Under the pieces are notes generated by a model that did not search any database, was not told the DNA's origin, and saw nothing but the letters and a program-made list of their open reading frames with translations. The position numbers and the translations under genes are program-made. Positions 9,895 to 28,765 of a DNA stretch of 33,420 nt are shown in pieces. The stretch is taken from the IMG/VR virus record IMGVR_UViG_3300028859_000042. One strand, written 5' to 3'. How positions within the stretch are numbered: position 1 is the first letter of the stretch; every line of letters begins with the position of its first letter. Source of the DNA: a virus.

Positions 9895-10293
9895 TTAATT
9901 TTTTATATCATTCCAATCAATATCATCACTATCTACATATTCATCAATTTCTTGGTTTCTATATTTGGAAATAATTTCTTGCCATGTTGGTTTAACTTTC
10001 CAAATACCAAGTATATTTATATAATCAGACCATTCAATGTGATTATCAATATCATAAACTTCTTCTCTATTTTCATTAACCCATTTAACATAATTAAATG
10101 CAAATGCTTGATCTGCAACAAAAAATCCAAGGTAAATTGCGAATATAGGTTTTGTGACTTTAAACACACCTTTATAATTTCTATCTTGATATTCTTGAAA
10201 AAGAATATAATCACCGAATTTTAATTGATTACAATTATCTGAGAAAGGATTAAGTTTTTTCATAATTTTATATTTCAGTTTGTATTTTTGCAA
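9895..10293 (-). CDS. hypothetical protein
   Basis: 132-aa ORF. Confidence 0.5.
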   Translation of the reverse strand: MQKYKLKYKIMKKLNPFSDNCNQLKFGDYILFQEYQDRNYKGVFKVTKPIFAIYLGFFVADQAFAFNYVKWVNENREEVYDIDNHIEWSDYINILGIWKVKPTWQEIISKYRNQEIDEYVDSDDIDWNDIKN

Positions 10294-10450
10294 GTCCGTA
10301 TCCTAAATATCCTCCTGATACACAGCATAATATAATTGTCAATATTATATTATTCATTACAAATAAAGGATTTATAATCATAATTATAACTAATAATAAC
10401 AATGTAATTATAGATATCACAAAAGGATAATATTTTTTTGCTTTTTTCAT
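10268..10450 (-). CDS. small two-TM membrane protein
   Basis: 60 aa, MKKAKKYYPFVISIITLLLLVIIMIINPLFVMNNIILTIILCCVSGGYLGYGL. Confidence 0.45.
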   Translation of the reverse strand: MKKAKKYYPFVISIITLLLLVIIMIINPLFVMNNIILTIILCCVSGGYLGYGLAKIQTEI

Positions 10451-10455
10451 ATTTT

Positions 10456-10809
10456 TTATTTATAATTAACTTCTAAATAATGTTTTATACATTTATTTAA
10501 TAATTCTGGATGAAGAATCTTTGCTGTTTGAATAGCGTCCATTTGCATTTCTGGCTTAGTATATCTTGCTAATGCCCAATCTATGTATGCTTCATATAAA
10601 TCTTCATCTGTCTTTACATTGTGATGCCTTGCTATTCTTCTATGAATTTTAGATGCATTATAATCTCCTAAAATAAGAATAAGAATCATTTTTTCTAAAT
10701 CGTGTTTAATTACTCTTAGCAATGAAACTTTTGTGGTTTCAGTCTTCCACAATTTTAAAATTGCTATCTTATGTTTATATACTCTTTTAGATTCATCAAA
10801 TCTATTCAT
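10456..10809 (-). CDS. hypothetical protein
   Basis: 117-aa ORF with His/Arg-rich segment HRRIARHHNV. I recognise no family. Confidence 0.5.
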   Translation of the reverse strand: MNRFDESKRVYKHKIAILKLWKTETTKVSLLRVIKHDLEKMILILILGDYNASKIHRRIARHHNVKTDEDLYEAYIDWALARYTKPEMQMDAIQTAKILHPELLNKCIKHYLEVNYK

Positions 10810-10844
10810 AACTAAGTTTTTAATAATTAGAATACAAAGATAAT

Positions 10845-10881
10845 AAAAAAAGTAGAATTAAATGAATAATTCTACTTTTTT
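10845..10881. terminator. A-run/T-run-flanked hairpin 3' of ORF 10902..11201
   Basis: aaaaaaa-gtagaatta-aatgaa-taattctac-tttttt. Confidence 0.5.
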
Positions 10882-10901
10882 AACTGTTATATTATGTTAA
10901 T

Positions 10902-11201
10902 TTAATCAAATAAATTTTCAGATGTCAATTCAGAGTCATCTCCATTTTCTGATGCTTCTTTACCATATCTAATTTGATTACTATTTTTAGCTATTTTCCA
11001 AGCTTCTTTTCTATAAACAAAATTTCCTTTTGATGTTAAAAATCCTTGCTCTTTTCTATTTGGCTCATGAAATTTAGTAGAGTTACAAGAAATTTCAATT
11101 TTATTTAATGAATCATAACAATCATTATGCCTTCTACCACAAACTATTATATCATCAAATTTAATTGCTGAGCATAATATATATTCTTTATCTTCCATCA
11201 T
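10902..11201 (-). CDS. hypothetical protein
   Basis: 99-aa ORF, ILCSAIKFDDIIVCGRRHNDCYDS. Confidence 0.5.
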   Translation of the reverse strand: MMEDKEYILCSAIKFDDIIVCGRRHNDCYDSLNKIEISCNSTKFHEPNRKEQGFLTSKGNFVYRKEAWKIAKNSNQIRYGKEASENGDDSELTSENLFD

Positions 11202-11420
11202 TAAACTATTATACCATTTAATATCATAATATTTTTATATTTGTTAAAGTCAAGTTTTTGACGAATTATTTCACATTTTTTATTATATTCTTTAAGTGTT
11301 TTTGCGCCTTCGTCTACACACTGATAATGAGTTTGTACAAGAATATCAAATTCTAATTGAGCATTTTTAGCATCTTCACGTTTTTCTTATACATAAAGTA
11401 CTAGTTCTTCTGTAGTTCCG
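11200..11420 (-). ncRNA. candidate omegaRNA/reRNA region downstream of (and overlapping) the TnpB 3' end
   Basis: A 220-nt stretch immediately 3' of tnpB with no credible ORF. TnpB/Fanzor guide RNAs are encoded at this position. The last ~113 nt of tnpB plus 3 nt beyond its stop are conserved (~86% identity) in a decayed second copy at 28548-28660, which marks the element's right end near 11418. This is an inference, not a structure I can fold by eye. Confidence 0.3.
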
Positions 11421-12878
11421 TCAACTTAAACATGCACAAATTTGTACAGGAAGTGACGTTTGGATGTTGTTTGATAACATTCCTTGTCCGAACACACTAT
11501 TCTTTATAAATTTAAAGAAATCGTAGTCGCATTTAATTTTAACTGGATTACACAGTTTAAACATATAATTTTTCAGCCATGAAAAATCATTATTTTTGTT
11601 TGATTTTTTAATATGATTAACTGCACCATTTAAATCTGCATTCATTGTTTTATTTATTAGTTTGTCTGTAAACAATCCACGTTTAGAACGAACACCATTT
11701 AGTTCTTTATCTAACGGATTATTAACATCATCACTAACACAAGAACACTTGGAAGTGTAGGCTTCGTTAATTATATCTACTTGAATTCCAACTTCATTAC
11801 TTTTATATTGAATGTAATCCAATAATTTAATGAAAGGAATCTGTATGAAATTTTGTTTTACTTTATTATTTAATTTGCAGTCACCATTATATTTTAAGCT
11901 AGCTAAATTATATGATATGGTTAGGTTTGTTACTGAATTTAATTTCAAGAACTCAACTACCCTTTTACTTACTTTATGAAACTGATCATAAAAATAACGA
12001 TTCCTCTTTTCATAAAGAAATGTCTTATACTTCCTTAATTCTATTCCTCTTTGAGTCCACTTGGAAGCATATTTAATATTATTTTTACTTAAACTATATT
12101 CTATTACTTCGTTAGAAATTGATTCATTTAATTTAGCTATAAAACGATTGAATTTTGAGTTATAAGTCTTAAAGTGATTTCCATCTACAATAATTGATTT
12201 AGATTTTTTATCATCAATAAATATTGCAAGCAAATTATTGACTCCAACATCAATCCCTGCTTCTTTTATGTTCAAATTACTATTTAAAATATCTTCAGTT
12301 AAATAGTTCAAGTGTAAATAAATTTCTTTGTTTGAGTAAACTATTTTAAGGCTTTGAATGTTTTTTGGTAGAAATTCGTGTTTGAAATCAATGTAAAACA
12401 TTTTATTACTTAAGTTAATTCCAATTTTATCTTTTTTCTTGAAGGAAAATGCAATTTGATCAACTAAAATTGAATATTTTGTTACCAAGAATAGCTTTTT
12501 AGCACTGGGTGTATTTGCCTTAACTTTTTGTTTGATTTTAGTGAAAAATGCTTTATAACTTACTTTAACTCTCTTAATCAAATCAGAAATATTATGAATT
12601 TTAAGACATTTAGATAAACGAATCAACTCAATCATTTTATCATAATTTTTATATTTATCTTTAATAAACTTTACTTTGTCTTTTTCCAAACCGCCAGCAG
12701 TTTCAGCAAGAACTGCTCTCATGACTTTATAGTTAGAAAGTAAATTAAAATCTTCTTGGTTTTCCTTCAATATTATAAGGTATAAGTTTTCGAAGTGACG
12801 ATATTTGAAAATATAATCACTCATCATTTTTTTATATTTATCTTCTTTAATGTGTATTATGAAGGTTCTATTATTCAT
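11421..12878 (-). CDS. tnpB: TnpB/Fanzor-like RuvC nuclease (IS605 OrfB family)
   Basis: 485 aa. RuvC-I is GIDVGVNNLLAIF, RuvC-II is EAYTSKCSC and RuvC-III is NADLNGAVNHI, so the D/E/D triad is intact. The usual CxxC...CxxC zinc ribbon between RuvC-II and RuvC-III is degenerate, but there is a C-terminal Cys cluster (CNPVKIKC...ICAC). No TnpA partner is present. Confidence 0.8.
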   Translation of the reverse strand: MNNRTFIIHIKEDKYKKMMSDYIFKYRHFENLYLIILKENQEDFNLLSNYKVMRAVLAETAGGLEKDKVKFIKDKYKNYDKMIELIRLSKCLKIHNISDLIKRVKVSYKAFFTKIKQKVKANTPSAKKLFLVTKYSILVDQIAFSFKKKDKIGINLSNKMFYIDFKHEFLPKNIQSLKIVYSNKEIYLHLNYLTEDILNSNLNIKEAGIDVGVNNLLAIFIDDKKSKSIIVDGNHFKTYNSKFNRFIAKLNESISNEVIEYSLSKNNIKYASKWTQRGIELRKYKTFLYEKRNRYFYDQFHKVSKRVVEFLKLNSVTNLTISYNLASLKYNGDCKLNNKVKQNFIQIPFIKLLDYIQYKSNEVGIQVDIINEAYTSKCSCVSDDVNNPLDKELNGVRSKRGLFTDKLINKTMNADLNGAVNHIKKSNKNNDFSWLKNYMFKLCNPVKIKCDYDFFKFIKNSVFGQGMLSNNIQTSLPVQICACLS

Positions 12879-12887
12879 TCAATTACT

Positions 12888-12950
12888 TGATTTTATTGCG
12901 TATTATATATAAATATTTAATAATTGTTTAATTTATTTACACTTTTTTAT
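12888..12950. repeat. copy 1 of a ~60-nt direct repeat (core tatatataaatatTtaataatt)
   Basis: Lies 10-70 nt upstream of the tnpB start on the minus strand. A near-identical core recurs at 13440-13500 upstream of ORF 13107..13418. Confidence 0.5.
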
Positions 12951-13106
12951 AGTTTTGTTTAAATTTTTTGTAACTGAATCTAACCTCTTGCTCTTATGCT
13001 TTTAGCTTCACCATATTGACTATTTTCATCACCACTTGAATATGAAAAGCCAATTTCTTTTATAAATTCTTCTGTGAAAATTTTTAACATAACTTTATAT
13101 TTTTAA

Positions 13107-13418
13107 TTATATAATATTATTATCAACGCACCAATTATTAAATAATTTTTCTAACGATGGTTCAATTTTAAAAAATATAGTGATAGGTAATTTATCTATA
13201 ACCATATTTTGATAATATTTATCTAAAAAATTCAAATTCTTTTGAATTTGTGATTTAGTCATATCAATATCTTTACATCTATTAAAATATTTAATAAATG
13301 GTGATTCTAAATCAAAATATGCATATACATCAGCTTGTTCCATAATTGATATTTTAAATATTAATAATAAATTTGAATACAAAGATAATACATTATTTTT
13401 ATATACTAAAATGTGCAT
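13107..13418 (-). CDS. hypothetical protein
   Basis: 103-aa ORF bracketed by the two direct-repeat copies. Confidence 0.45.
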   Translation of the reverse strand: MHILVYKNNVLSLYSNLLLIFKISIMEQADVYAYFDLESPFIKYFNRCKDIDMTKSQIQKNLNFLDKYYQNMVIDKLPITIFFKIEPSLEKLFNNWCVDNNII

Positions 13419-17169: not shown

Positions 17170-17381
17170 AAATAGGAGATATAGTAATATATATAGGTAA
17201 AGATAATAAATTAATATATTTGAAAGAATATACTATTTATTATATAACTACAACAGGATTTAATTATATATTTTTTATGATTGATGGAATTAATGCTATG
17301 AGCATGTTTCCTATTGAAGATTTTTGTACATTAAAAGAATATAGAAAATTAAAATTAAATAAATTATGCTCAACCAAGTAA
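17166..17381 (+). CDS. family B-like (MKIGDIVIYIGKD...TLKEYRKLKLNKL)
   Basis: 71 aa. Confidence 0.55.
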   Translation: MKIGDIVIYIGKDNKLIYLKEYTIYYITTTGFNYIFFMIDGINAMSMFPIEDFCTLKEYRKLKLNKLCSTK

Positions 17382-17584
17382 AAGGAATTACAGCTAAAAC
17401 AGAATTAGATAAAAAAGCATATGAAAAATATGAAGAGTATATTGATATTCAAGGTTATTACACTCAATATACGTTAGATTTATTCTTAACTCAAAAGAAA
17501 TCTAATAAAATTAAATTATTTTATGAAATAGCTTTAAAACAATTGAGATTAGATAAATTAAATAAATTATGTATACAGAATTAG
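17366..17584 (+). CDS. family D member (...LRLDKLNKLCIQN)
   Basis: 72 aa. First of 4 tandem copies with overlapping junctions aaattATGtatacagaattag. Confidence 0.55.
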   Translation: MLNQVKGITAKTELDKKAYEKYEEYIDIQGYYTQYTLDLFLTQKKSNKIKLFYEIALKQLRLDKLNKLCIQN

Positions 17585-17763
17585 AAAAATTAAACAAGTT
17601 TGCATATGATATGTTTATATACGACATGAAAAATAAATATAGAATAAGCTATTTGACTATTTATGAATTTATTGAAAATAAAGAAATATATCATAATTAT
17701 TATGATAAAGCAAAAAAATTAATAAGAAAAGAAAAACTTAATAAAATATGCACACAAACGTAG
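17569..17763 (+). CDS. family D member (...IRKEKLNKICTQT)
   Basis: 64 aa. Confidence 0.55.
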   Translation: MYTELEKLNKFAYDMFIYDMKNKYRISYLTIYEFIENKEIYHNYYDKAKKLIRKEKLNKICTQT

Positions 17764-17939
17764 ATATGCTAGCATATGAATTATATTGTGAAAGTAGAAA
17801 TCCAAAGGATGAAGGATATTCATGCCTATGTACATTTGATTATTTTATTTATAAAAAAAATGAATATCAATTATATTATGATAAGGTTATCAGAAAAGAA
17901 AAACTTAAAGAATTAAATGAAATATGTACACAGAATTAG
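17748..17939 (+). CDS. family D member (...IRKEKLKELNEICTQN)
   Basis: 63 aa. Confidence 0.55.
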   Translation: MHTNVDMLAYELYCESRNPKDEGYSCLCTFDYFIYKKNEYQLYYDKVIRKEKLKELNEICTQN

Positions 17940-18115
17940 ATAAATTGACATATAAATTATATTCAGAATATATGATGTCTGAAAGATGTATTATTTGGAA
18001 TGATATTGAATATTTTATAAAACGTAAAGATTCATATCATGATTATTTCAATGACGCTATAATTAAATTAAGAAAAGAAAAACTCAATACTATATCAAAA
18101 TATGTGCAAATTTAA
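17924..18115 (+). CDS. family D member (...LRKEKLNTISKYVQI)
   Basis: 63 aa. Confidence 0.55.
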   Translation: MYTELDKLTYKLYSEYMMSERCIIWNDIEYFIKRKDSYHDYFNDAIIKLRKEKLNTISKYVQI

Positions 18116-18663
18116 TATCGGAGATAAAATTGTTTATATTGTATATGAAAATAATTTATCTTTTTATGAGTATCCGTTTGAGTGTTTTAAATATAGTGTT
18201 TTATTGTTAATTATTTAGCATGTGTTACTTGTCAACCATCTCTTTATTAGTTAACTACGTACAACTCTCAATTTTAACTTGGGGATTAATTAAAACATAA
18301 GAAACAACTCCATAGTAGTTGATCAGAACAATCAACCACGTATGCTTTATTTTAGTCTATCCTAATTGATGACCCATACAATCAAATTTTATAACTATAT
18401 AAATAACAAGACATTACTAATATTAAATAGATAAAGCGAATCAACATAAATATATATATTAAGATATCCAAACGGATACTCATATATCTTTTTATGATGA
18501 TTTTTTTAAAAAATATAACACGTATACGATAGTTCAAATTTTAAATAATGGTATTACATTTGGACTAGGAATTAAAGAGATAGGTGGTTATTACTCATCA
18601 AATTATTTCATAACTTTAAAAGAATATAGAAAATTAAAACTTCAAAAATTAGAATTGTTATGA
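18102..18663 (+). pseudogene. family-B gene split by a MITE-like insertion
   Basis: The 5' part MCKFNIGDKIVYIVYENNLSFY runs from 18102 to 18169. The 3' part ...ITLKEYRKLKLQKLELL* runs from 18498 to 18663. Deleting 18170-18497 joins them in frame into a 77-aa family-B protein. Confidence 0.7.
18157..18497. mobile_element. MITE-like non-autonomous element (~316 bp) with TIRs and a 12-13-bp target-site duplication
   Basis: The direct repeat tatctttttatga occurs at 18157-18169 and at 18485-18497. The terminal inverted repeats are tatgagtatccgtttg (left) and caaacggatactcata (right). The interior is GC-richer than its surroundings and has no ORF. Confidence 0.65.
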
Positions 18664-18906
18664 TAACTAATATAAATAAATATGATAAAGTAGTATATAT
18701 TTTGGTCATGATGGTAAAATTAGTCAGTCTAAATTTATCTATGGTAATATTTATACAGTAACAGGCTACTTTCGATCTTATATACCAGAATTGTCTTATA
18801 TAACTACAGATGAAATAGAAAATTTTTATATTTATCTTAATTTTTTTATTACATTAAAAGAATATAGAAAATTAAAACTTCAAAAATTAGAATTATGTTT
18901 AGAGTA
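18660..18906 (+). pseudogene. family-B paralog with a -1 frameshift in a T4 homopolymer (18700-18703)
   Basis: MITNINKYDKVVYI(L) then shifts into GHDGKISQSKFIYGNIYTVTGY...ITLKEYRKLKLQKLELCLE*. Inserting one T restores a full-length family-B ORF. Confidence 0.55.
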
Positions 18907-19104
18907 GGAGAAAAAATAGTTTATATAAAGCAATCATATACTGGACTTAAATTAGCATCAATTCATATTATAAAAGATATTAGATTTGATACTAGTATAT
19001 CATTAGAAGATTCTTATAAAAATTGGTGGTTTTCATCCGAATGTTTTATATCACTATCTGAATATCGAAAACAAAAACTTAATGAATTAAAAAAAATATC
19101 ATAA
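18895..19104 (+). CDS. family B member (MFRVGEKIVYI...SLSEYRKQKLNELKKIS)
   Basis: 69 aa. Confidence 0.6.
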   Translation: MFRVGEKIVYIKQSYTGLKLASIHIIKDIRFDTSISLEDSYKNWWFSSECFISLSEYRKQKLNELKKIS

Positions 19105-19169
19105 TATTTTTTTATTCAAAATTAATTTCATATATTTGCACATTAAATGTTTAACTAAATAATTATAAT

Positions 19170-20231
19170 ATGATAGATAAAAATATTTGTATACCTGGCA
19201 ACATATTTGTTGTAAATAACAAAGTTTCAAAAGTAAATAATCAATATAATGATTATTATAATCAAAAAGACTCATTAGGATTAAATGCTTATATTCATAT
19301 GAAAGATGGAATAGATTATTCTGGTTATAACATGATTGAAATTCCATCAGGTACAAAAATTGAAATAATTAAATTTAAAAATGCAACAGCATTTTTTAAA
19401 ATAATAAGTGAGCCTAATAATATTTATTCTGCATATTGGTCTCCATTTAAAGTTAAAGTTGATAAAATTGAAGGTCAAGAAATTAGTGAACCTGAAGTTA
19501 TACCAACTAGATATAAAATCTTCTATAAAGGAAAAGCTCACAAGCCAAAATATTTCAATGATCTTGGTAAAGTTAAAGCATCATTACTTATTACAATTGG
19601 ATATTATGAAAATCAATATGAAATGTTCCAAAAATATATTGATCGTAATCCAGAATTAGAAGACTCACAAATTCCAGAATGGTGTCAATCTGCGAATGAA
19701 ACATTTGATAGAGATGATTGTAAATATCTTGAAATTATGTCATACGTTAATGGTGATAACAAACATCCTATCAAATTTGATTTTGATATGCTTAAATATT
19801 ATGATGATTCAATGAGATTGATTAATGTCACTGCTCAGTTTGGCAACGCAGCAAGAGAAGTATTCAAAAATGTAATGAATACAAAAGAATATTCTTATAT
19901 GTTAGTTTATTATCCTTATGAATATCGTAATCCTAATAATTTTGATGTAAGTTATGGCTATAAAAGTAGTAATTTTGATTTTAGTGAATTGAAAGAAGAT
20001 CAAAGAATTAAAGACATTTTAAAAGAATCTGGGATCAAAGGAACAAAAAAATCTACCAAATTTGGTAAAACTGCAATAGCTTTTAAAACTCTTGATGATC
20101 TTAAACAAGTTATGTTAAGGCTAGAACCAAAAGAATATTTTATTCTTGATTGTGACGGTGATCAATTAATTGAAAAAAATACAAGATTTATTAAATTAAT
20201 TATGCTTCAAGAAGAAAATTTTGATGAATAA
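19170..20231 (+). CDS. hypothetical protein
   Basis: 353-aa ORF with no recognised domain. The short ORFs inside it on both strands are spurious. Confidence 0.6.
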   Translation: MIDKNICIPGNIFVVNNKVSKVNNQYNDYYNQKDSLGLNAYIHMKDGIDYSGYNMIEIPSGTKIEIIKFKNATAFFKIISEPNNIYSAYWSPFKVKVDKIEGQEISEPEVIPTRYKIFYKGKAHKPKYFNDLGKVKASLLITIGYYENQYEMFQKYIDRNPELEDSQIPEWCQSANETFDRDDCKYLEIMSYVNGDNKHPIKFDFDMLKYYDDSMRLINVTAQFGNAAREVFKNVMNTKEYSYMLVYYPYEYRNPNNFDVSYGYKSSNFDFSELKEDQRIKDILKESGIKGTKKSTKFGKTAIAFKTLDDLKQVMLRLEPKEYFILDCDGDQLIEKNTRFIKLIMLQEENFDE

Positions 20232-20234
20232 TAT

Positions 20235-20537
20235 ATGAAAATAGGAGATAAAATATTTTGCTTAGATTATCAAATATATTCGGATTATAATGACGATATT
20301 AAATATAAAGGAGGATTATTAAAAAAAAATACAGAATATACAATCTATGGTATTTTTTTAGAATTTAGTGATTATTCTGAAAAATGGGTAGCAGAAACTC
20401 CTAAGATAGATGATAATAATTGTCAAATATATTTTGAATTAATTGAACTTGATGAGTTGATGTTTAATAAATGTAGATTTTTAACTAATAATGAATATAG
20501 AAAACTTAAGTTGCAGAAAATATATGAAAGTAGGTGA
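20235..20537 (+). CDS. family B member (MKIGDKIFCLD...NNEYRKLKLQKIYESR)
   Basis: 100 aa. Confidence 0.55.
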   Translation: MKIGDKIFCLDYQIYSDYNDDIKYKGGLLKKNTEYTIYGIFLEFSDYSEKWVAETPKIDDNNCQIYFELIELDELMFNKCRFLTNNEYRKLKLQKIYESR

Positions 20538-20757
20538 TAAAGTAATTTTTCATAGTAATCATTATTATAGAGATTTAATAGAAGGTTACACATATACAAT
20601 ATCTGAAATTAATAGAATAGATGATGCTTATATTGAAATACCTAACGAAGATTATATTATAGTATTATTAGAAAATACTTACGTTTTTTTATCAGATTTT
20701 ATAACTATAAAAGAATATCGAAAACTTAAATTGAAAGAAATAGATGAAAGTAGGTGA
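20491..20757 (+). CDS. family B member (YMKVGDKVIFHS...TIKEYRKLKLKEIDESR)
   Basis: 88 aa by the ORF track. The likely start is the internal Met just before KVGDKV. Confidence 0.55.
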   Translation: MNIENLSCRKYMKVGDKVIFHSNHYYRDLIEGYTYTISEINRIDDAYIEIPNEDYIIVLLENTYVFLSDFITIKEYRKLKLKEIDESR

Positions 20758-20947
20758 TAAAGTTGTATGTATTGATAATTATAATTATACATATAAAATT
20801 TCATTAGATAAAATTTTAACAATAAAATTCAATAATAATTCTTATATGAAATTTGATGAAATCGATTATAGATATTCAAGTAATAGATTTATAACTATAA
20901 AAGAATATAGAAAACGTAAATTAAAAAAATTAAAAAACTTATACTAA
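20744..20947 (+). CDS. family B member (MKVGDKVVCIDN...TIKEYRKRKLKKLKNLY)
   Basis: 67 aa. Confidence 0.6.
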   Translation: MKVGDKVVCIDNYNYTYKISLDKILTIKFNNNSYMKFDEIDYRYSSNRFITIKEYRKRKLKKLKNLY

Positions 20948-20985
20948 TATTTGGTAGTTATAAAAAAATATATTATCTTTATAAT

Positions 20986-21510
20986 ATGACAGAAAACAAA
21001 CAAATAAATAAAAATGTAACTTTTTTTGGAGGTGCTATTAATGATAGAACTACTTCTAAATATAGTGATAGTGTTTTAATTGGAAACTTTTTAGCTTCAA
21101 ATGGGTATATAATTAAAAATGGAGGATATAGTGGATTAATGGAAGCTGTTTCTAAGGGAGCTAATGAAGCAGAAGGTACAATAATTGGTTATACTTGTTT
21201 ATCTATTGGCTGTGCAAGAGGAAATGAATATTTAACAGAAACAGTTCCTTGTATTGACATCTATCAAAGATTGAGATTATTAATATCTGATAGTGAAATT
21301 TTTATAGTCCAAATAGGTGGAATTGGTACATTATCTGAAGTGTTTCTTCTATTAGATGGCATAAGAAAATTAAAAGTAAAACCAAGAATATTTTTATTTG
21401 GACCTGAATGGAACAATTTATTTAATAATTTAACTGACTTTATGTCACCTGATCAAATAAAAATGATCACATTTTGTCAGGATTTTGAAGAATTTATAAA
21501 AGTTTTTTAA
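20986..21510 (+). CDS. LOG-family (lonely guy / SLOG, TIGR00730-like) Rossmann-fold nucleotide-processing protein
   Basis: 174 aa. NGGYSGLMEAVSKGA matches the LOG GGGxxGLMG motif, and VQIGGIGTLSEVF matches PGGxGTxxE. Confidence 0.7.
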   Translation: MTENKQINKNVTFFGGAINDRTTSKYSDSVLIGNFLASNGYIIKNGGYSGLMEAVSKGANEAEGTIIGYTCLSIGCARGNEYLTETVPCIDIYQRLRLLISDSEIFIVQIGGIGTLSEVFLLLDGIRKLKVKPRIFLFGPEWNNLFNNLTDFMSPDQIKMITFCQDFEEFIKVF

Positions 21511-21555
21511 ATTTATTTAGTTGGTATCATATTTGTAATATTAAAAAAAATATAA

Positions 21556-21885
21556 ATGACTGTATTTTATACATATTTATTTGGTGTGATAGTAGTATTT
21601 ATTCTAATTATAAATATTCATATATTAGATGAAAAAACAAAATATAAAGATGATGATAGAGATTTATCTATAAAATACTATATATTATTTTATATTTTTA
21701 ATATATTTTGTTATTTATTTTTAAATGTAATACGTGAAAAAAGAAAAATAAATTATTATAAATATTATATAAAATGTTTTGATGATAATAGAATATATTT
21801 TGAATTATCATTTAGTTTAGAAATTGAAATCAAAAAAAGAAATAAAATAATTAGATATTTAAAAATTAAACAATTAAAAAAATAA
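21556..21885 (+). CDS. family C paralog (NIFCYLFLNVIREKRKINYYKYY...IIRYLKIKQLKK)
   Basis: 109 aa with a TM N-terminus. Confidence 0.6.
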   Translation: MTVFYTYLFGVIVVFILIINIHILDEKTKYKDDDRDLSIKYYILFYIFNIFCYLFLNVIREKRKINYYKYYIKCFDDNRIYFELSFSLEIEIKKRNKIIRYLKIKQLKK

Positions 21886-21904
21886 TCATTATATAAACTT
21901 AAAT

Positions 21905-22270
21905 ATGATAATAGCAGTAAAAGTGTATCAAATTATTTTATTTATGATATTAATTGCAATTATTTATAAAATTGTTCTGGTATTAGATGAAAAAACAAAA
22001 TTTCCTGATGATCATAGAAAAATATCTTTTAAATATTCTATATTTTTTTATATTTTTAATGCTTTTTGCTTTCTATTTTTAAATACTATAAGAGAAAATA
22101 GAAAAAATGATTATTATAAATATTACGTAAAATATTATAAAAAATATAAAAAATCACTTGATTTTTTAACTAAATATTCTATATATGATGATTGTAATGC
22201 AATAAATTATAATATTAAAACTTATAATAAAATACTTAGATATTTAAAAATTAAACAATTAAAAAAATAA
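21905..22270 (+). CDS. family C paralog (NAFCFLFLNTIRENRKNDYYKYY...ILRYLKIKQLKK)
   Basis: 121 aa. Its 3' flank aataatcattatataaac is duplicated after both copies. Confidence 0.6.
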   Translation: MIIAVKVYQIILFMILIAIIYKIVLVLDEKTKFPDDHRKISFKYSIFFYIFNAFCFLFLNTIRENRKNDYYKYYVKYYKKYKKSLDFLTKYSIYDDCNAINYNIKTYNKILRYLKIKQLKK

Positions 22271-22438
22271 TCATTATATAAACCCAAACATGACAATATT
22301 GTTATGCTTAACAAAAAAAAAAGAAAATTATGAAACATCAACATTAGGTTTTATCATTTGATAGAGGTTCACCTTTTATTATTTTTAATCAATTAGTATT
22401 TAAAAAAATTAATAATTTAATAAAAAAATAATAAAAAT

Positions 22439-22762
22439 ATGAAAACTACAATAAAAAATGATATAAAAAAACTGGCGGAGAATCAATCAAATCTCAGAAA
22501 TCAAAGAAAAACTATTCACATTAAAGGTGAAAGAGTAATGGAATCATGGAAAGCAGATTATTTACATTCTGAAAACAGACATGAATTAAGAATGTTATAT
22601 GCAGCTTATGCAGTATTAAAAGGTAAAATATTTGAAGAAATTGAACCTAAAAATAAACCAGATAAATTGCCTTTATCATATTACAAAAATTCAATTGATA
22701 AATTAGTTGAAAAATATAATGTGATAGAAGAAATTAAAGATGAATCATTAGCATCTATTTAA
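22439..22762 (+). CDS. hypothetical protein
   Basis: 107-aa ORF. Confidence 0.5.
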   Translation: MKTTIKNDIKKLAENQSNLRNQRKTIHIKGERVMESWKADYLHSENRHELRMLYAAYAVLKGKIFEEIEPKNKPDKLPLSYYKNSIDKLVEKYNVIEEIKDESLASI

Positions 22763-22763
22763 T

Positions 22764-23090
22764 ATGATAATGAAAAACGTCAAAGATGATTTAGAAAAAG
22801 ATAAATTATTTATATTAATTGACAACAAGCTTGATGTTACTTATGGAGGAGTTCAAGGTGCTCACGCTTCATGCCAATGGTTACTTGATCATAAATAGGT
22901 GCAAACCTGGAATAATCAATACTTAATTTTTCTATCTGCAGAACTTGAAAAATGGATATTTAAGTTAACTCTTAAAAATATAGATTTCACAGTGTTCTAT
23001 GAACCTGATTTAGATAATAAACCAACTGCATTAGCAGTACATGGCAATGATTCTCTATTTCGTAATTTAAAACTTTGGGGTGCTTTATAA
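22764..23090 (+). CDS. PTH2-type peptidyl-tRNA hydrolase-like gene interrupted by one in-frame TAG (22896-22898)
   Basis: The ATG at 22764 opens MIMKNVKDDLEKDKLFILIDNKLDVTYGGVQGAHASCQWLLDHK, then TAG, then VQTWNNQYLIFLSAELEKWIFKLTLKNIDFTVFYEPDLDNKPTALAVHGNDSLFRNLKLWGAL*. The block LFILIDNKLDV..GGVQGAHAS matches the Pth2 core (vVRtDLkMgkGKiaAQcsHA) and the C-terminus matches ...TvLgIGP.....D..TG.LKLy. It is a shortened, divergent version. It is either a pseudogene or is translated by UAG readthrough. Confidence 0.5.
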
Positions 23091-23112
23091 GCACCCCGAT
23101 TTTAATAAAAAT

Positions 23113-23183
23113 GCTCATTTAGTCCAGTGATAGGGCGGTAGCCTCTAAAACTACCTACATCGGTTTGAATCCGATAGTGAGCA
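23113..23183 (+). tRNA. tRNA with anticodon CUA (UAG-decoding suppressor-type tRNA)
   Basis: The cloverleaf folds by hand. The 7-bp acceptor stem is gctcatt/agtgagc with one G-U. The D stem is gtcc/gggc and the T stem atcgg/ccgat. The T loop is tttgaat. The anticodon stem is gtagc/(a)ctac around the 7-nt loop cuCUAaa, with U33 and A37 present. The discriminator is A and no CCA is encoded. A19 in the D loop together with U56 in the T loop is a covariant replacement of the G19-C56 tertiary pair. The anticodon lies at 23145-23147. Confidence 0.65.
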
Positions 23184-23216
23184 CAAATATATTTTTCATA
23201 AGGTATATTTATTTTT

Positions 23217-23250
23217 AAAAGGATTGAAATTCATTTCAATCCTTTTTTTA
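23217..23250. terminator. strong hairpin with U-tract 3' of the tRNA
   Basis: aaaa-ggattgaaa-ttca-tttcaatcc-ttttttt: a 9-bp perfect stem extended by an A4/T4 pairing. Confidence 0.6.
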
Positions 23251-23289
23251 TGTATAAAAATTTGCACATTCAAAATTTAATAGTTATAT

Positions 23290-23742
23290 TTGTATCTTAT
23301 TTTAAAACTTATAAAAATGATTGTAAATATTGTAAATTATGTAATGAGTAGTTCATATATATCATTAAATACTGATTATAATATTTTTTATAATAATAAT
23401 GATTCTATTAAAATATTAGATTTTAATAAGATGCTTGATATTACTATATCAATGAAAATAAATAATATAAATTTAGGTGGACTATTATGGTTCGTTAAAG
23501 AAATTCGTATGTATGAAATATGTCAATTAAAAGAATGTAAAGATTTTACTGATATGTTGAGAATGATTGGTATAATAATTGGCACAAATACTATATCTAT
23601 AAGTGATGAAATATATTCAATAAAAGGTTTAACTTTATTAGAATTAACTCACATAATTGATAATAATCCTGATAATTCATTTCAGAAATTACGAACATAT
23701 ATTAGAAAGAAAAAACTTGAAAAAATAATGATAGATGCTTAA
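23290..23742 (+). CDS. tail-family protein (...LRTYIRKKKLEKIMIDA)
   Basis: 150 aa. Paralog of 24944..25372 in the region GLTLLELTHIIDNNPDN / GITLHQFNMMINDDKY. Confidence 0.55.
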   Translation: MYLILKLIKMIVNIVNYVMSSSYISLNTDYNIFYNNNDSIKILDFNKMLDITISMKINNINLGGLLWFVKEIRMYEICQLKECKDFTDMLRMIGIIIGTNTISISDEIYSIKGLTLLELTHIIDNNPDNSFQKLRTYIRKKKLEKIMIDA

Positions 23743-23989
23743 CGTTGGAGACAAAATTTATTTTATTAAATCTTTATGATACAATATAGATTTACCATCA
23801 AATAAAGAATTAACAATCTTACATATATTTGATTGCCGTAATAATATTGTAATAGGAGGAGTTACTACTGTAATTAGAATAAAAGAAGCTATAATTGTTG
23901 ATGATTATTATTCAGAACAATTTTTATCATTGAAAGATTATAGAAAAGAAAAACTAAAAAAATTATCAAATATATGCAAGCTTGGGTAA
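23735..23989 (+). pseudogene. family-B paralog with an in-frame TGA (23777-23779)
   Basis: MLNVGDKIYFIKSL then TGA then YNIDLPSNKELTILHIFDCRNNIVIGGVTTVIRIKEAIIVDDYYSEQFLSLKDYRKEKLKKLSNICKLG*. Confidence 0.5.
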
Positions 23990-24228
23990 AAAAACATAAT
24001 TCAACATTTTATTGTATTGATAACTATATAAAAAAAGATAATAAAAATTATAATCTTAAATCTTATAAAATGGGTACATCTTTTGATAAATATACTAATT
24101 TTAGAATAATATACTATGATAGTAATATATCAAGACAAGTTTTTTTTTCAAATATAACATTATCTGCTAATGAATATAATAATTTTATAAGAAAAACAAA
24201 AATTGAAAAATTATCAAAATATGAATGA
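23974..24228 (+). CDS. tail-family protein (...FIRKTKIEKLSKYE)
   Basis: 84 aa. Confidence 0.5.
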   Translation: MQAWVKKHNSTFYCIDNYIKKDNKNYNLKSYKMGTSFDKYTNFRIIYYDSNISRQVFFSNITLSANEYNNFIRKTKIEKLSKYE

Positions 24229-24484
24229 TTGGATAAATAAATGGATAGAAAGAAAAAATGAATTACCATTATTTTTTGATTATATTATTAAAAAAGATAA
24301 TGAAAAATATGAATTTTATTCATATATGAAATTAACAACTTATGAATTTAGCATAAAAGTTAAATTGTCATATTATATTATAAATGTAGATACTATGTTT
24401 TCAGATGAAAAAGAAATATCATTTAATTCATTTAATAATTATCTTAGAAAAATTAAATTAGAAAAATTAAATGAAAATATCTAA
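24203..24484 (+). CDS. tail-family protein (...YLRKIKLEKLNENI)
   Basis: 93 aa. Confidence 0.5.
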   Translation: MKNYQNMNDWINKWIERKNELPLFFDYIIKKDNEKYEFYSYMKLTTYEFSIKVKLSYYIINVDTMFSDEKEISFNSFNNYLRKIKLEKLNENI

Positions 24485-24758
24485 TTTTGAATTATTGATT
24501 TATGTTATAAATAACGTTGAACGTTTTTATATATCAGAAGGATATGTTATAGATCGTATATCATATAATATAATTAGAAATACATTATGTATAACTGTAC
24601 GATATTTAATTAAAGTTGATTCTGAATTATGTACAAGTATTACAGTAAATGTTAATATTAGAGATTATATTAGAGAAACTAGAAGAATAAAATTTAAGAA
24701 AATGAAAATAGATGAAAATAACAAAAAAGGATATGATGATTTATATATTGAATCATGA
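24471..24758 (+). CDS. hypothetical small protein (weak tail IRETRRIKFKKMKIDE)
   Basis: 95 aa. Confidence 0.45.
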   Translation: MKISNFELLIYVINNVERFYISEGYVIDRISYNIIRNTLCITVRYLIKVDSELCTSITVNVNIRDYIRETRRIKFKKMKIDENNKKGYDDLYIES

Positions 24759-24794
24759 TGAAGAATTTATTCTTAATAAAAAATATACTATTGA

Positions 24795-24947
24795 CGATAT
24801 AAAATATCATATATCAATAATGAAATTAATATTGATATTACATATTTAATAGCTGATAATAAATATAAACAATTTAATTATTATATTTATATTTTAGAAT
24901 ACGTAAAATATATAAGAAAATTTAAATTATCTAAAATAATATTATGA
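24795..24947 (+). pseudogene. start-less remnant of a tail-family gene (...EYVKYIRKFKLSKIIL*)
   Basis: A 50-codon open frame ending in a TGA that overlaps the next ATG. It has no ATG but keeps the tail motif. Confidence 0.3.
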
Positions 24948-25372
24948 TAAACGTAAAGTTATATAATAAAGAATTATTTACTAAACATAATTTGTTTATT
25001 GAAGTCTGTATTCCTAATGATAAATATAATTCTATATCTCATTTATTTGATGTAATAATAAATAAATTAATAGAGTATAAAAATAGAGATGTTTATTTTG
25101 CTTCTATTCGTAGTTTAATAGGTATAATGCTAGTTGAAATGAAACATGTAGATGAATTGGAATTAGAAGATTTTTTTAGAATTTTTCAATATAGATTTGA
25201 TGTGCTTGATAATAAAATAGATGTGTTTAATGGATGGTATCATTTTATAAATCAAGATATAGAAGATATTAAAGGAATAACTTTACATCAATTTAATATG
25301 ATGATTAATGATGATAAATATATTAAAAAATATTTTAGAATGATTAAACTTCAAAAATTATCAAAATTATGA
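24944..25372 (+). CDS. tail-family protein (...YFRMIKLQKLSKL)
   Basis: 142 aa. Confidence 0.55.
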   Translation: MINVKLYNKELFTKHNLFIEVCIPNDKYNSISHLFDVIINKLIEYKNRDVYFASIRSLIGIMLVEMKHVDELELEDFFRIFQYRFDVLDNKIDVFNGWYHFINQDIEDIKGITLHQFNMMINDDKYIKKYFRMIKLQKLSKL

Positions 25373-25740
25373 TAGTAGAATATTATAATATAGATTTTTC
25401 AATAAATTATCAATCTGAAGAAATAGATTCAAATAGAATATATAATATTATTAAAAATTATATAAATAATTATATAATGATATATAAAAATAATCCTCAT
25501 ATTTATGTAGGTAAGGATTGTTTTGATTTTATTTTATATTCCGATAAATTTCATCTTATTTCTTACAAATCATCAAAACCTTATATCGGAATATTATATG
25601 ACTGTTATCTTTATATAAACACAGATTTACAAGAAGGGGATTTTTATTTATCTAATAATAAAATAGATTTTAAACAATATAATAGAAAATTAAAAATAGA
25701 AAAAATAAATAATTATTATAATGAAAATAGTAAAATTTAA
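25369..25740 (+). CDS. tail-family protein (...YNRKLKIEKINNYY)
   Basis: 123 aa. Confidence 0.5.
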   Translation: MIVEYYNIDFSINYQSEEIDSNRIYNIIKNYINNYIMIYKNNPHIYVGKDCFDFILYSDKFHLISYKSSKPYIGILYDCYLYINTDLQEGDFYLSNNKIDFKQYNRKLKIEKINNYYNENSKI

Positions 25741-25857
25741 TGTTGAAATATTTGATAATTATATATTAAAAACTACTAGGATTTTTACGAATTATTATAT
25801 AAAGAAATATCTAAAAATTTTAATGATTATGGAGTTGCTGTTGTTTTTAGTCGTAAA

Positions 25858-26064
25858 ATGATGGATAATTTAAATTATCTTAATTGTAATTATAAAATTC
25901 ATATTCAATATCAAGTAAATGATTATATAAACATAAATGATGTTTTTATATATCCATATTATGCAGCCAATGAATGTGATATTATATTAACAGATTTTGA
26001 TTTTATTAAATATTATAGAAAACAAAAACTTAAAGAAATATGTTTAAACCAGGAGATAGAGTAG
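25858..26064 (+). CDS. family B-related (tail DFIKYYRKQKLKEICLNQEIE; atypical head)
   Basis: 68 aa. Confidence 0.5.
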   Translation: MMDNLNYLNCNYKIHIQYQVNDYININDVFIYPYYAANECDIILTDFDFIKYYRKQKLKEICLNQEIE

Positions 26065-26282
26065 TTTGCATAAATGATGAAAATAATTGTGATCCAAATA
26101 TAAATCTAATTAAATATAATATTTATATTGTAAAAGAGTTACATGAATATACCAATAATAGAATAATATTAGAATATCATGAAAATAGTTTATATTATAA
26201 TACTAGATTTATATTATTAAAAGAATATAGAAAAGAAAAACTCAAACAAATAGAATTATGTTCAAACCAGGAGATAAAGTAG
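26040..26282 (+). CDS. family B member (MFKPGDRVVCIND...)
   Basis: 80 aa, tail LLKEYRKEKLKQIELCSNQEIK. Confidence 0.6.
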   Translation: MFKPGDRVVCINDENNCDPNINLIKYNIYIVKELHEYTNNRIILEYHENSLYYNTRFILLKEYRKEKLKQIELCSNQEIK

Positions 26283-26494
26283 TGTGTATTAATGATAAAT
26301 ATTTTGATAATGATAAATCTATAATAGAAATGATTAAATATAATATTTATACAATAAATAGAATTGCAGAAATTTCAGGTAGCAATACAGATAGAGTTGT
26401 ATTATATGAATGTAAACGTATGTATTTTTCACACAGATTCATATCATTAAAAGAATATAGAAAACAAAAATTATTAGAAATATGTTCAAAGTAG
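26258..26494 (+). CDS. family B member (MFKPGDKVVCIND...)
   Basis: 78 aa. Confidence 0.6.
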   Translation: MFKPGDKVVCINDKYFDNDKSIIEMIKYNIYTINRIAEISGSNTDRVVLYECKRMYFSHRFISLKEYRKQKLLEICSK

Positions 26495-26748
26495 GAGATA
26501 AAGTAGTTTGTATTGATGTTAAAAAATATAATAATAATAATTATAATGTAAACCTAATTAAATATAATATTTATACAATTAATATAGATTTTTCAGTTTT
26601 TGATAGATCAAGTTTTGGTAGATCAAGAGTTGAAATAAAAGAATGTTGTAATGAGACATTTTATTCAGAGAGATTTATATTATTAAAAGAATATAGAAAA
26701 CAAAAACTCAAACAAATAGAATTATGTTCAAACCAGGAGATAAAGTAG
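26482..26748 (+). CDS. family B member (MFKVGDKVVCIDV...)
   Basis: 88 aa. Confidence 0.6.
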   Translation: MFKVGDKVVCIDVKKYNNNNYNVNLIKYNIYTINIDFSVFDRSSFGRSRVEIKECCNETFYSERFILLKEYRKQKLKQIELCSNQEIK

Positions 26749-26963
26749 TTTGCATTGATCAACAATATAGAAAAAAATACAATTTACCTAATACAATATT
26801 AGAAGTTACAGAATATAAAGATATAAGATATAAAAAATTATTTAGTGAAAATTTTATTATTTGTTTCAAAGATATAAAATATGGATATAATTATAATTGT
26901 TTTATGCTATTAAAAGAATATCGTAAATTAAAATTATTAAAATTAAATAAAAATGATAAGTGA
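26724..26963 (+). CDS. family B member (MFKPGDKVVCIDQ...)
   Basis: 79 aa. Confidence 0.6.
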   Translation: MFKPGDKVVCIDQQYRKKYNLPNTILEVTEYKDIRYKKLFSENFIICFKDIKYGYNYNCFMLLKEYRKLKLLKLNKNDK

Positions 26964-27234
26964 ATCAAGTCTTGTTAATTATATAGAAAATCTAAATCTT
27001 AGAAAAACCCATGAATGTTTTGATACTAACTATATAATTGATAATAATTATATAATATGCATTGAATCATCTACTAATGTTTTTTTCATAGATAAAAAAA
27101 TGAATTCGAACCTGTATATTTTCATAATTAATATTGAAAAATTAAAAGATATTTATTATAAAAAAACTGGTAAAAATATAGAAATTTTAATGAGAAAAGA
27201 AAAACTAAAAAAATTAGAAGAATGTTCAAGATAA
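26953..27234 (+). CDS. tail-family protein with a different head (...LMRKEKLKKLEECSR)
   Basis: 93 aa inserted within the array. Confidence 0.5.
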   Translation: MISESSLVNYIENLNLRKTHECFDTNYIIDNNYIICIESSTNVFFIDKKMNSNLYIFIINIEKLKDIYYKKTGKNIEILMRKEKLKKLEECSR

Positions 27235-27446
27235 GAGATAGAGTAGTTTGCATTGATAATTCTTATTTATATGATATAAATCTATTACAATTAAATAATA
27301 TTTATATAATTGAAGATATTTTTAGTTATGATACAGAAAATAATTATATTGGTATGATATTAGAAAAATATAATTTTGAATTTAATTCTAATAGATTTAT
27401 ATCATTAAAAGAATATAGAAAACAAAAAATATTAAAATTATGTTAA
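27222..27446 (+). CDS. family B member (MFKIRDRVVCIDN...)
   Basis: 74 aa. Confidence 0.6.
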   Translation: MFKIRDRVVCIDNSYLYDINLLQLNNIYIIEDIFSYDTENNYIGMILEKYNFEFNSNRFISLKEYRKQKILKLC

Positions 27447-27685
27447 AACCAGGAGATAAAGTAATTTGTATTGATAATTCTTATTTAGATGATAATAGTA
27501 TGAGAAAATTATTATTAAACCATATTTATATAATTAAACTATGCTTTACATATCAATCAGATCATTTTAATTATATTATATTAGAAAATGATTTTGAATA
27601 TCATGAAAATAGATTTATAACATTAAAAGAATATAGAAAACAAAAACTATTAAAATTATGTTCAAACCAGGAGATAAGTTATTAG
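27440..27685 (+). CDS. family B member (MLKPGDKVICIDN...)
   Basis: 81 aa. Confidence 0.6.
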   Translation: MLKPGDKVICIDNSYLDDNSMRKLLLNHIYIIKLCFTYQSDHFNYIILENDFEYHENRFITLKEYRKQKLLKLCSNQEISY

Positions 27686-27906
27686 AAATATCAACTAACA
27701 AAATTTTCACATTCTGTGATTATATAAAAACTATATCATATTCATCAAATTATAATGATATGATAGTGAATGATTATGATTATGAAAATGGTTTAATATC
27801 AATCAATGAAGATGCAGAAAATTATCATAGAATTAATAAATATTTATCTATTAAAGAATGTAGAAAAGAAAAACTTAAAAAATTATATAAAGATTTTAAT
27901 ATTTAA
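27658..27906 (+). CDS. family B-derived, diverged (MFKPGDKLLEIST...SIKECRKEKLKKLYKDFNI)
   Basis: 82 aa. Confidence 0.5.
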   Translation: MFKPGDKLLEISTNKIFTFCDYIKTISYSSNYNDMIVNDYDYENGLISINEDAENYHRINKYLSIKECRKEKLKKLYKDFNI

Positions 27907-27999
27907 AGTTAAAAATCAATAAAATAAATAATATATTAATATCTAAATCATTTATATTTTATATCTTTGTCATCATTATAATAATTATTTAAAATACTC

Positions 28000-28266
28000 A
28001 TGAAAATAACATATACTAAGCAAAAAGGGGCGAGAATTAAATATTCATTCAAAAGACCATTTTCAATTAATATAAATGGTTATTGGTGGAATTGTGAATT
28101 ATTAAGATGGGAAAAAGAAGATGACTTCAATTTTTATAAATATGAATATACTAGTAATTATTATTCTTTAAAATCAGTTAAAAGATTTCTTATAAAATAT
28201 AAAGCACCAAAAGGTAAAGATTCCGTTACAAAAAAATTAAATAAAAATATAAAAAAGTGTAAATAA
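28000..28266 (+). CDS. small basic hypothetical protein
   Basis: 88-aa ORF. Confidence 0.45.
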   Translation: MKITYTKQKGARIKYSFKRPFSININGYWWNCELLRWEKEDDFNFYKYEYTSNYYSLKSVKRFLIKYKAPKGKDSVTKKLNKNIKKCK

Positions 28267-28479
28267 AATAAACTTTTTTAAAATATTATACTATTAAATA
28301 TAATTAAACAAATAGTTCTTTGATGTCATGATAAAATGGTTGTTAGTTAAAAACTTAACTAACGTAAAATCATAAAAGTAATAAGTTTGATTAAAAATCA
28401 AACTGAAACTTTTAATCGTTATACATATCAATAATATTGATTACAGTAAACATAGAACGATTAATACACTTTTAAATAC

Positions 28480-28665: not shown

Positions 28666-28765
28666 ATTAATATATCAACCATGTGGATTAATCATGATAT
28701 GAAAGTTATCATAAAAAAAGATTTAGTTGGAAGTAAATTAAGAAAAAGAAAATTATTAAAAATAA

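Follow-up and report, generated by a model that had tools for sequence, protein, structure and literature searches.

The window analyzed here is a 33,420-nt stretch of viral DNA (IMG/VR record IMGVR_UViG_3300028859_000042). It carries, on the minus strand, a tnpB gene inside a transposable element that we assign to the IS607 family. The element (copy 1) has no transposase gene (tnpA) and ends in a predicted guide RNA, known as omegaRNA or reRNA. A shorter, gene-less copy (copy 2) lies elsewhere in the window, and the sites of both copies are found without the element in closely related contigs. The features of the copy 1 locus are as follows (compared loci and proteins bear the prefixes L and P).

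11418-12983, minus strand: copy 1, IS607-family element without tnpA; 1566 bp, counting the terminal GG but not the left GG
11421-12878, minus strand: tnpB open reading frame (ORF); 485 aa, ATG start, TGA stop; ratio of nonsynonymous to synonymous substitution rates (dN/dS) across lineages 0.11-0.16
11418-11537, minus strand: predicted omegaRNA scaffold and right end (RE); three stem-loop domains, ending in ...GACGG; 97.8 bits, E = 1e-19
12879-12983, minus strand: left end (LE) and leader upstream of tnpB; tnpA is missing here
11398-11417, minus strand: predicted 20-nt guide AACTACAGAAGAACTAGTAC, consisting of flanking phage DNA (gene B) and starting right after the CGG end
11204-11417, minus strand: remnant of phage gene B, without its first 34 codons and with one in-frame TAA where relatives have AAA
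12984-13090, minus strand: opening 36 codons of phage gene A, up to the AGAGG of the left junction

The Element and Its Ends

The ends of copy 1 were set by comparison with copy 2 and with a related element in L083, and by comparison with two element-free loci, L096 and L097, whose homology to the window halts at 12983 and picks up again at 11419. A model that had read the window from its letters only (hereafter the original prediction) placed a second copy near 28.5 kb and the right end 3 nt after the tnpB stop codon. Both placements hold. Positions 11418-11538 match 28538-28658 at 86% identity and positions 12891-12981 match 28218-28308 at 79%, and the homology between the copies ends exactly 3 nt past the stop codon, at ...GTTGACGG in both. 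From the first base beyond this end the flanks are unrelated in all 41 loci compared. The end itself reads CGG in 39 of the 41 non-identical loci, GGG in L048 and CGA in the close relatives L001 and L003. The sites show a single GG when empty and, when occupied, a GG at each junction; the right end closes with GG in 39 of 41 loci. This is the pattern expected of the IS607 family, namely recombination at a GG dinucleotide with neither target-site duplication nor terminal inverted repeats.

At the other end, the first 44 nt are identical to the L083 left end at 40 positions, and a motif TWAR..CNGTTA is common to the window, L083 and L087-L092. A promoter-like site (TAAACA-17-TATAAT) is present at 12930-12902; such sites are not commoner than in shuffled sequence. 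We considered whether the copies could be IStrons, removed by splicing from the interrupted genes, and rejected this since Rfam returned no match at all, and hence no group I intron, for either copy at gathering score or at E ≤ 10.

The assignment to IS607 rests on L083, whose TnpB is 95% identical to that of the window. In this locus a 202-aa TnpA gene with MerR and Resolvase domains overlaps the tnpB start, and the autonomous element measures 2148 bp as compared to 1566 bp for the window copy. The same kind of TnpA, overlapping tnpB, is present in L090, L091, L092 and L098-L101 (phage-like contigs), and the TnpA-tnpB arrangement is also found in many hot-spring loci. The serine-recombinase TnpA that should lie upstream of tnpB in an IS607 element is thus absent from the window copy and present in its relatives; by this comparison the window copy is therefore a deletion derivative. 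It had been stated that no recombinase accompanies tnpB. This is correct for the ~33-kb window, in which tblastn with a related TnpA revealed no remnant (best E-value 0.17) and no recombinase was detected by Pfam among 20 scanned ORFs of 99 aa or more, a set that covers every such ORF within ~4 kb of tnpB. It is not correct for the family, whose TnpA is a serine recombinase in the relatives.

Internal loss of tnpA appears to have happened repeatedly in this clade, because several hot-spring relatives (L007, L009, L010, L016 and L018) keep only the first ~25 codons of a MerR-type TnpA (MYKIGKFSKLTGIS...), ~100 nt upstream, fused ahead of tnpB. At 9967-9986 of L001, a 330-kb IMG/VR contig, an 82%-identical tnpB begins 18 nt past the stop codon of a 297-aa gene, with no recognizable left end. 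Its scaffold is intact (88 bits) and its right end is CGA instead of CGG; this may be a fixed, immobile copy. A 13-kb contig with a 75%-identical homologue (L084) has two more TnpBs of a different type (10003-11223 and 11984-13201; 405-406 aa; HTH_OrfB_IS605), which means that there are several TnpB lineages in related phages. Three places in the phage genome LR756500 match the window TnpB.

A TnpB with an Alternative RuvC-II Glutamate

The motifs originally listed for the 485-aa minus-strand protein (GIDVG, EAYTSK, NADLNGAVNHI, CSC, CNPVKIKC and ICAC) are all present in the ORF. Its attribution to the TnpB family, with an intact RuvC triad, was borne out by profile searches, which gave 39.6 bits for Pfam OrfB_IS605 (cut-off 30.5) and 39.1 bits for Cas12f1-like_TNB (cut-off 26.3). 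D210, E372 and D415 (codons at 12249-12251, 11763-11765 and 11634-11636) are invariant in an alignment of 24 sequences. The NCBIfam guided_TnpB profile reached 87.9 bits (E = 8e-25), under its curated cut-off of 100; judged by this profile, the clade is divergent but clearly related to guided_TnpB. Homologues of up to 95% identity occur in metagenomes, and bacterial TnpBs from Sulfurihydrogenibium, Caloranaerobacter, Caminicella and Desulfurella are 45-50% identical over the full length. The predicted fold also matches: an AlphaFold2 model with a mean predicted local distance difference test score of 83.9 resembles Cas12f, ISDra2 TnpB, ISFba1 TnpB and mimivirus Fanzor2 in Foldseek searches. 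With the window protein alone, phmmer found no match among PDB sequences. The protein is thus, from sequence and model, a predicted TnpB-family RNA-guided nuclease.

Divergence from L083 is uneven along the gene. Of the differences between window 11418-12878 and L083 952-2412, 74 fall within the first 840 nt and only 7 within the last 620 nt, a mosaic that suggests recombination between element lineages. For the same reason we rejected the idea that near-identity to L083 over the last 121 nt reflects an extra constraint on the scaffold, since the whole 3' 620 nt is equally undiverged.

A CxxC...CxxC zinc finger between RuvC-II and RuvC-III is not found, although the hidden Markov model of the TNB domain still matches. 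In a profile alignment to Cas12f, S379 and S382 occupy the position of the first CxxC and the second Cys pair is absent. This loss extends to the whole clade (SxxS for CxxC), including the ordinary bacterial TnpBs at 45-50% identity. Zinc fingers are common in TnpBs and not obligatory (PMC10711439). In the same alignment the invariant S322 falls on the canonical RuvC-II glutamate, and E372 stands seven positions (six residues between) before S379, the equivalent of the first zinc-ligand cysteine, which is where Fanzors have their alternative glutamate. This clade has therefore lost the zinc finger and, by this alignment, uses the alternative glutamate E372.

It was originally suggested that a Cys cluster after RuvC-III is a relocated zinc ribbon and that the protein is Fanzor-like. 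The relocated ribbon is not supported by the relatives: the KLCNP cysteine (C443) is mostly conserved, with KLNNP, KLANP or KLSNP in some members; that of KIKC is replaced by Ser in most; and the ICAC tail varies, being ICAG already in the 95%-identical homologue. The likeness to Fanzors holds in part. On one side are E372 and membership in IS607, the presumed parent family of Fanzor2 (PMC10711439). On the other are a RuvC-I motif with DVG and not DPG (D-[VIL]-G clade-wide), a phage host and the clade-wide loss of the zinc ligands. Yoon et al. define Fanzors by DPG plus the alternative glutamate, and describe a separate TnpB clade that combines the alternative glutamate with D-hydrophobic-G (PMC10711439). 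The GIDVG protein of the window fits the latter clade, and membership in the Fanzor family proper is refuted by the DPG test and the phage context.

The 3' End of tnpB Contains a Covarying RNA Scaffold

A guide RNA had been proposed that overlaps the 3' end of the ORF, and a covarying three-stem scaffold is indeed present at 11418-11537. Independent minimum-energy folds of 18 single sequences gave the same architecture: an outer stem from GCGAC around a long hairpin, a second hairpin, and a terminal stem CGUCx/xGACG around a third hairpin. The structure was taken from such single-sequence folds, imposed on the alignment of 41 loci, and then tested against slid pairing partners and 500 shuffles. 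On the proposed structure 85.9% of cells pair, compared to 33-43% with slid partners; compensatory changes on both sides are found in 33 of 48 pairs; and the covariation score is 0.349 as compared to at most 0.088 in the slid controls. None of the 500 shuffles reaches the observed values. RNAalifold run on a plain MAFFT alignment recovered a single stem only. Since G-U pairs outnumber A-C pairs 218 to 56, the structure is specific to the sense strand of tnpB, as would be expected of an RNA rather than of a double-stranded DNA site.

The covariance model has exactly two matches in the window, 11418-11537 (97.8 bits) and 28539-28658 (96.5 bits). It recovers L089, a locus outside its training set, at 76 bits, and gives no match on the element-free contigs. 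Both scaffolds also fold better than shuffled sequence (z = -2.06 for copy 1 and -2.90 for copy 2). The 120 nt downstream of the right end show no excess structure (z = -0.18), and the view that the omegaRNA gene occupies the 220 nt after the stop codon was abandoned, this region being a remnant of phage gene B. The scaffold is therefore placed within the ORF 3' end, and only ~20 nt beyond 11418 would be part of the RNA. Structure, covariation and the matches of the flanks to empty sites (below) together indicate a structured guide RNA that starts in the 3' end of the gene and runs into the flank.

Element-Free Alleles of the Copy 1 Site

On either flank of copy 1, L096 and L097 share 98-99.6% identity with the window. 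Both carry AAGG directly followed by an exact 20/20 match to AACTACAGAAGAACTAGTAC, the guide that had been anticipated at 11398-11417. This 20-mer occurs once in the window, and exact-match scans of IMG/VR with the left flank, the guide and a 21-mer of the scaffold yielded nothing new.

On the left, the junction falls in gene A, at AGAGG; on the right it falls in gene B, at AAAGAAGG|AACTACAGAAGAACTAGTAC. L096 and L097 have both genes intact, gene A with 92 aa, like its homologues P0124-P0126, and gene B with 105 aa (P0123). As compared to L096, the window is without the 289 bp between the two GG junctions and the element stands in their place, which implies a secondary rearrangement at copy 1. 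Because the missing segment is bounded by AGG at either junction, its loss is best explained by a second GG-directed event, possibly an intramolecular TnpA reaction or recombination between two insertions. An insertion into a single gene was considered, the joined flanks being in frame, and rejected because intact relatives show two genes and the 289-bp loss. The original remark that 11200-11420 has no credible ORF is true in a mechanical sense, but the region is what remains of a 5'-truncated and nonsense-mutated gene B. Its in-frame TAA at 11390-11392 (minus strand) replaces an AAA (Lys) codon of the element-free relatives and fits decay after truncation.

The left flank ends in RAGG at 11 independent junctions of the phage clade, with A at position -3 in 11/11. 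Hot-spring relatives have RGG at the left flank. In the right end of the element this position is C, which would allow target and self to be told apart in a simple manner and agrees with the GGG transposon-adjacent motif measured for ISXfa1 (PMC10711439).

Copy 2, a Gene-Less Derivative

The features of the copy 2 locus are:

28215-28658, plus strand: copy 2, non-autonomous derivative resembling a miniature inverted-repeat transposable element; 444 bp, made of LE, an unrelated 230-nt middle and RE/omegaRNA scaffold
28539-28658, plus strand: copy 2 omegaRNA scaffold; covariance model 96.5 bits, z = -2.90
28659-28678, plus strand: predicted guide TATACCTATTAATATATCAA; 19/20 match to the empty site in L095, unique in the window
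28000-28214, plus strand: 5' part of the interrupted phage gene; 71 full codons plus two G of the Gly-72 codon; 3' part at 28659-28782

The middle 230 nt have no match in any compared locus. In stem 2 the scaffold differs from that of copy 1 by two double compensatory changes (AUGUU/AACAU to AUUUC/GAAAU). When the flanks of copy 2 are joined at GG they form an open frame of 117 codons. An intact homologue of 121 aa (P0121), 87% identical to the reconstructed protein, spans the junction. Its contig, L095, is ~98% identical to the window on both sides of the site and has the empty allele ...CCAAAAGG|TATATCTATTAATATATCAA (AAAAGG|TATATC...), in which a single GG is followed by the 19/20 match to the guide.

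Proposed Function

Our preferred explanation, to which we give a probability of about 75%, is that copy 1 is a tnpA-less IS607-family element of a huge phage that keeps a tnpB and guide-RNA module, with RNA-guided homing into element-free phage genomes as its most likely function. The tnpB transcript would be processed into an omegaRNA consisting of the scaffold and ~20 nt of flank. TnpB and this RNA would recognize a 5'-RAGG transposon-adjacent motif (TAM) together with the 20-nt target, and would cut element-free genomes, whether these result from excision or belong to a sister phage met in co-infection. The occupied genome would then serve as template for recombinational repair, by which the element would be copied back in. 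The element's own junction would be spared, because its right end is CGG rather than AGG. Since vacant sites in a phage would mainly be met in co-infecting relatives, homing could operate without TnpA. Movement to new sites would need TnpA in trans from an autonomous copy, and such copies exist in related phage contigs. Copy 2, whose scaffold is just as good, could be served by the TnpB of copy 1. A GG crossover, a GGG TAM and a ~150-nt three-stem reRNA are known from ISXfa1 (PMC10711439), and TnpB-driven homing was shown for an IS607-family element (PMC10690162).

Several points weigh against homing by copy 1. As tnpA is absent, copy 1 cannot excise by itself, and the donor joint that excision leaves behind would require TnpA in trans or co-infection. 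Nor can copy 1 be read as a simple insertion, since it stands in place of 289 bp of phage DNA. At position 5, within the likely seed region, the copy 2 guide does not match the one empty allele known, and stem 4 of the window scaffold contains one mismatch as compared to L083. All four zinc ligands of TnpB are lost, and its nuclease activity is a prediction.

Some of these points would also suit an immobilized relic, that is, an element that lost tnpA and a piece of its flank and is decaying, its TnpB and RNA being of use neither to itself nor to the phage. The missing tnpA and 289 bp, the nonsense mutation in gene B and the scaffold mismatch are all compatible with decay, as is L001, where the left end is essentially gone and tnpB follows the preceding gene by 18 nt. 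However, the ORF is full length with an invariant triad, an identical protein is present on 9 contigs (the longest of 208 kb), both scaffolds equal those of autonomous copies in score, and stem 2 has changed in a compensatory manner between the two copies. The gene also appears to be selectively maintained, with dN/dS of 0.16, 0.13 and 0.11 against relatives at 95%, 82% and 75% identity, values that span lineages including autonomous copies and not the window copy's own branch, which again tempers the case for homing. On balance we consider a relic improbable.

An even smaller chance is given to domestication by the phage, either as a weapon that cuts competing phages or host DNA or as a TldR-like repressor of a gene. 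TnpB-only loci do stand at different sites in several huge-phage contigs (L001, L084 and L089), perfect targets in element-free sister phages mean that cleavage would harm competitors, and regulatory TnpB derivatives encoded by phages are known (PMC13418256). On the other hand, the guides match just their own insertion sites in the sequence available, and the triad is intact, unlike that of nuclease-dead TldR. Autonomous copies with TnpA and TnpB circulate in the same kind of phage, and for this reason a selfish element fits better than a fixed host function. A benefit in competition would, moreover, be mechanistically the same event as homing, and sequence cannot separate the two. Finally, the reading as a Fanzor, or a nuclease akin to it, from a giant virus or a virus of eukaryotes, with its zinc module relocated, can practically be set aside, because E372 at the position typical of Fanzors (PMC10711439), a structural match to mimivirus Fanzor2 with a template modeling (TM) score of 0.55 and a large, very AT-rich genome are outweighed by DVG in RuvC-I, unconserved C-terminal cysteines, bacterial TnpBs as the closest named relatives, neighbor genes that match phage families and uncultured phages of 462-735 kb, and a search of PDB sequences with the clade profile that reached Cas12f and no Fanzor.

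Homing by IS607 TnpB elements is already established, and the element described here is ordinary in type. What it offers is an unusually complete natural test case, with occupied and empty alleles of two sites in near-identical huge-phage genomes, guides that match the empty alleles 20/20 and 19/20, each beside a consistent RAGG, and autonomous, tnpA-less and gene-less forms that circulate in one phage population. RNA-guided homing between phage genomes thereby becomes directly testable. In addition, a clade of ~485-aa TnpBs without a zinc finger, apparently under selection, may interest engineers of compact nucleases.

A bolder proposal can be made tentatively, the odds being somewhat against it. 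The TnpB-omegaRNA of huge phages could act as a transposase-independent gene drive, with the 444-bp copy as a satellite that borrows TnpB at a second locus and with the zinc-finger-less, alternative-glutamate TnpB as an active nuclease. If so, the drive would cut the RAGG-flanked perfect site in co-infecting sister phages and be copied in by recombination, and TnpBs of this kind would represent a type of active compact nuclease that is biochemically uncharacterized so far.

Comparison with Known Systems

ISXfa1 of Xylella fastidiosa (IS607; PMC10711439) is similar in its serine-recombinase family and GG crossover, in a guide RNA of about three stem-loops at the right end that overlaps the tnpB 3' end, and in a TAM containing GG (GGG in ISXfa1; RAGG proposed for the window element). 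These similarities are drawn from the published description of ISXfa1, for which a pseudoknot is also reported. The window copy differs in having no tnpA, a shorter scaffold (~120 nt as compared to the ~150-nt reRNA) and a huge-phage host, and its TnpB has lost all four zinc-finger cysteines.

CboIStron and other Clostridium IS607 elements (PMC10690162) resemble the window family in combining TnpA-S and TnpB, with scarless excision, in the presence of TnpA-less derivatives alongside autonomous copies, and in cleavage of the vacant site by TnpB-omegaRNA, by which the element is retained; the last is proposed by analogy for the window. Unlike CboIStron, the window element has no group I intron and its left end is only ~100 nt, so splicing would not silence its insertions into genes.

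ISDra2 TnpB (IS200/IS605) shares the overall fold (Foldseek E = 1.6e-11 for PDB 8h1j and 3.2e-09 for 8exa) and, presumably, the RNA-guided, TAM-dependent logic, while phmmer gives no sequence match between the proteins. It differs in its partner, a Y1 transposase that acts on single-stranded DNA, in its canonical glutamate and intact CxxC..CxxC zinc finger, and in a TAM that is the transposase target motif and not a GG crossover. Fanzor2 of Acanthamoeba polyphaga mimivirus (PDB 9b0l) has in common with the window TnpB an IS607 ancestry, the alternative RuvC-II glutamate, a large-virus carrier and the fold (TM 0.55). It is a eukaryotic-virus protein with a DPG motif, and it is not matched by the clade profile at E ≤ 0.01. 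Cas12f (e.g., AsCas12f, PDB 8dzj) provides the best structural and profile matches and a miniature RuvC architecture; it is CRISPR-associated, acts as a dimer, and has the canonical glutamate, a zinc finger and ~15% identity to the window protein.

The Phage Genome

Fanzors reside in eukaryotes or their viruses, whereas the window genome (G+C about 20%) is, as read from its genes, that of a huge bacteriophage and not of a eukaryotic virus. This conclusion derives from neighbor genes that match PHROG families and phages of 462-735 kb, and from the sizes of the contigs that carry the exact window TnpB (up to 208 kb), an 82%-identical TnpB (330 kb) or the truncated host gene of copy 2 (346 kb). 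An 817-aa protein with the major-vault-protein shoulder, vault repeat and SPFH/Band-7 domains (2518-4971, plus strand) resembles, at ~50% identity along its whole length, proteins from uncultured phages (462 and 735 kb; LR756500, LR756501 and LR756503). A PHROG match was looked for with this protein and none was found. Further ORFs in the window match the PHROG families of RNA ligase, cytidyltransferase and single-stranded DNA-binding protein, and a T4_Y16D-family gene is located on a contig syntenic with the window. The contig with the truncated host gene of copy 2 measures 346,561 nt, and the gene fragment on it, P0122, is 100% identical to that of the window.

Small paralogous ORFs, arrayed in tandem and repeating every ~190-240 nt, fill 5600-7700 (minus strand) and 17300-28980 (plus strand). 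They share a C-terminal motif, roughly L-K-E-Y-R-K-x-K-L-x-K-L, and make up most repeat families of the window. We rejected the idea that both copies of the element had inserted into members of these arrays, as the reconstructed proteins have no significant paralogy. In the small-gene block downstream of copy 1, 249 bp (10362-10610) are missing from L096 and L097, which are otherwise 98-99% identical to the window.

A tRNA with anticodon CTA, which would read TAG, lies at 23113-23184 on the plus strand (labeled tRNA-Pyl by ARAGORN; Rfam tRNA, 55 bits). Among 38 stop-to-stop ORFs of at least 100 aa, TAG is the stop codon in 1, TAA in 25 and TGA in 12. The combination of this tRNA with rare TAG hints at amber suppression or TAG recoding in the phage.

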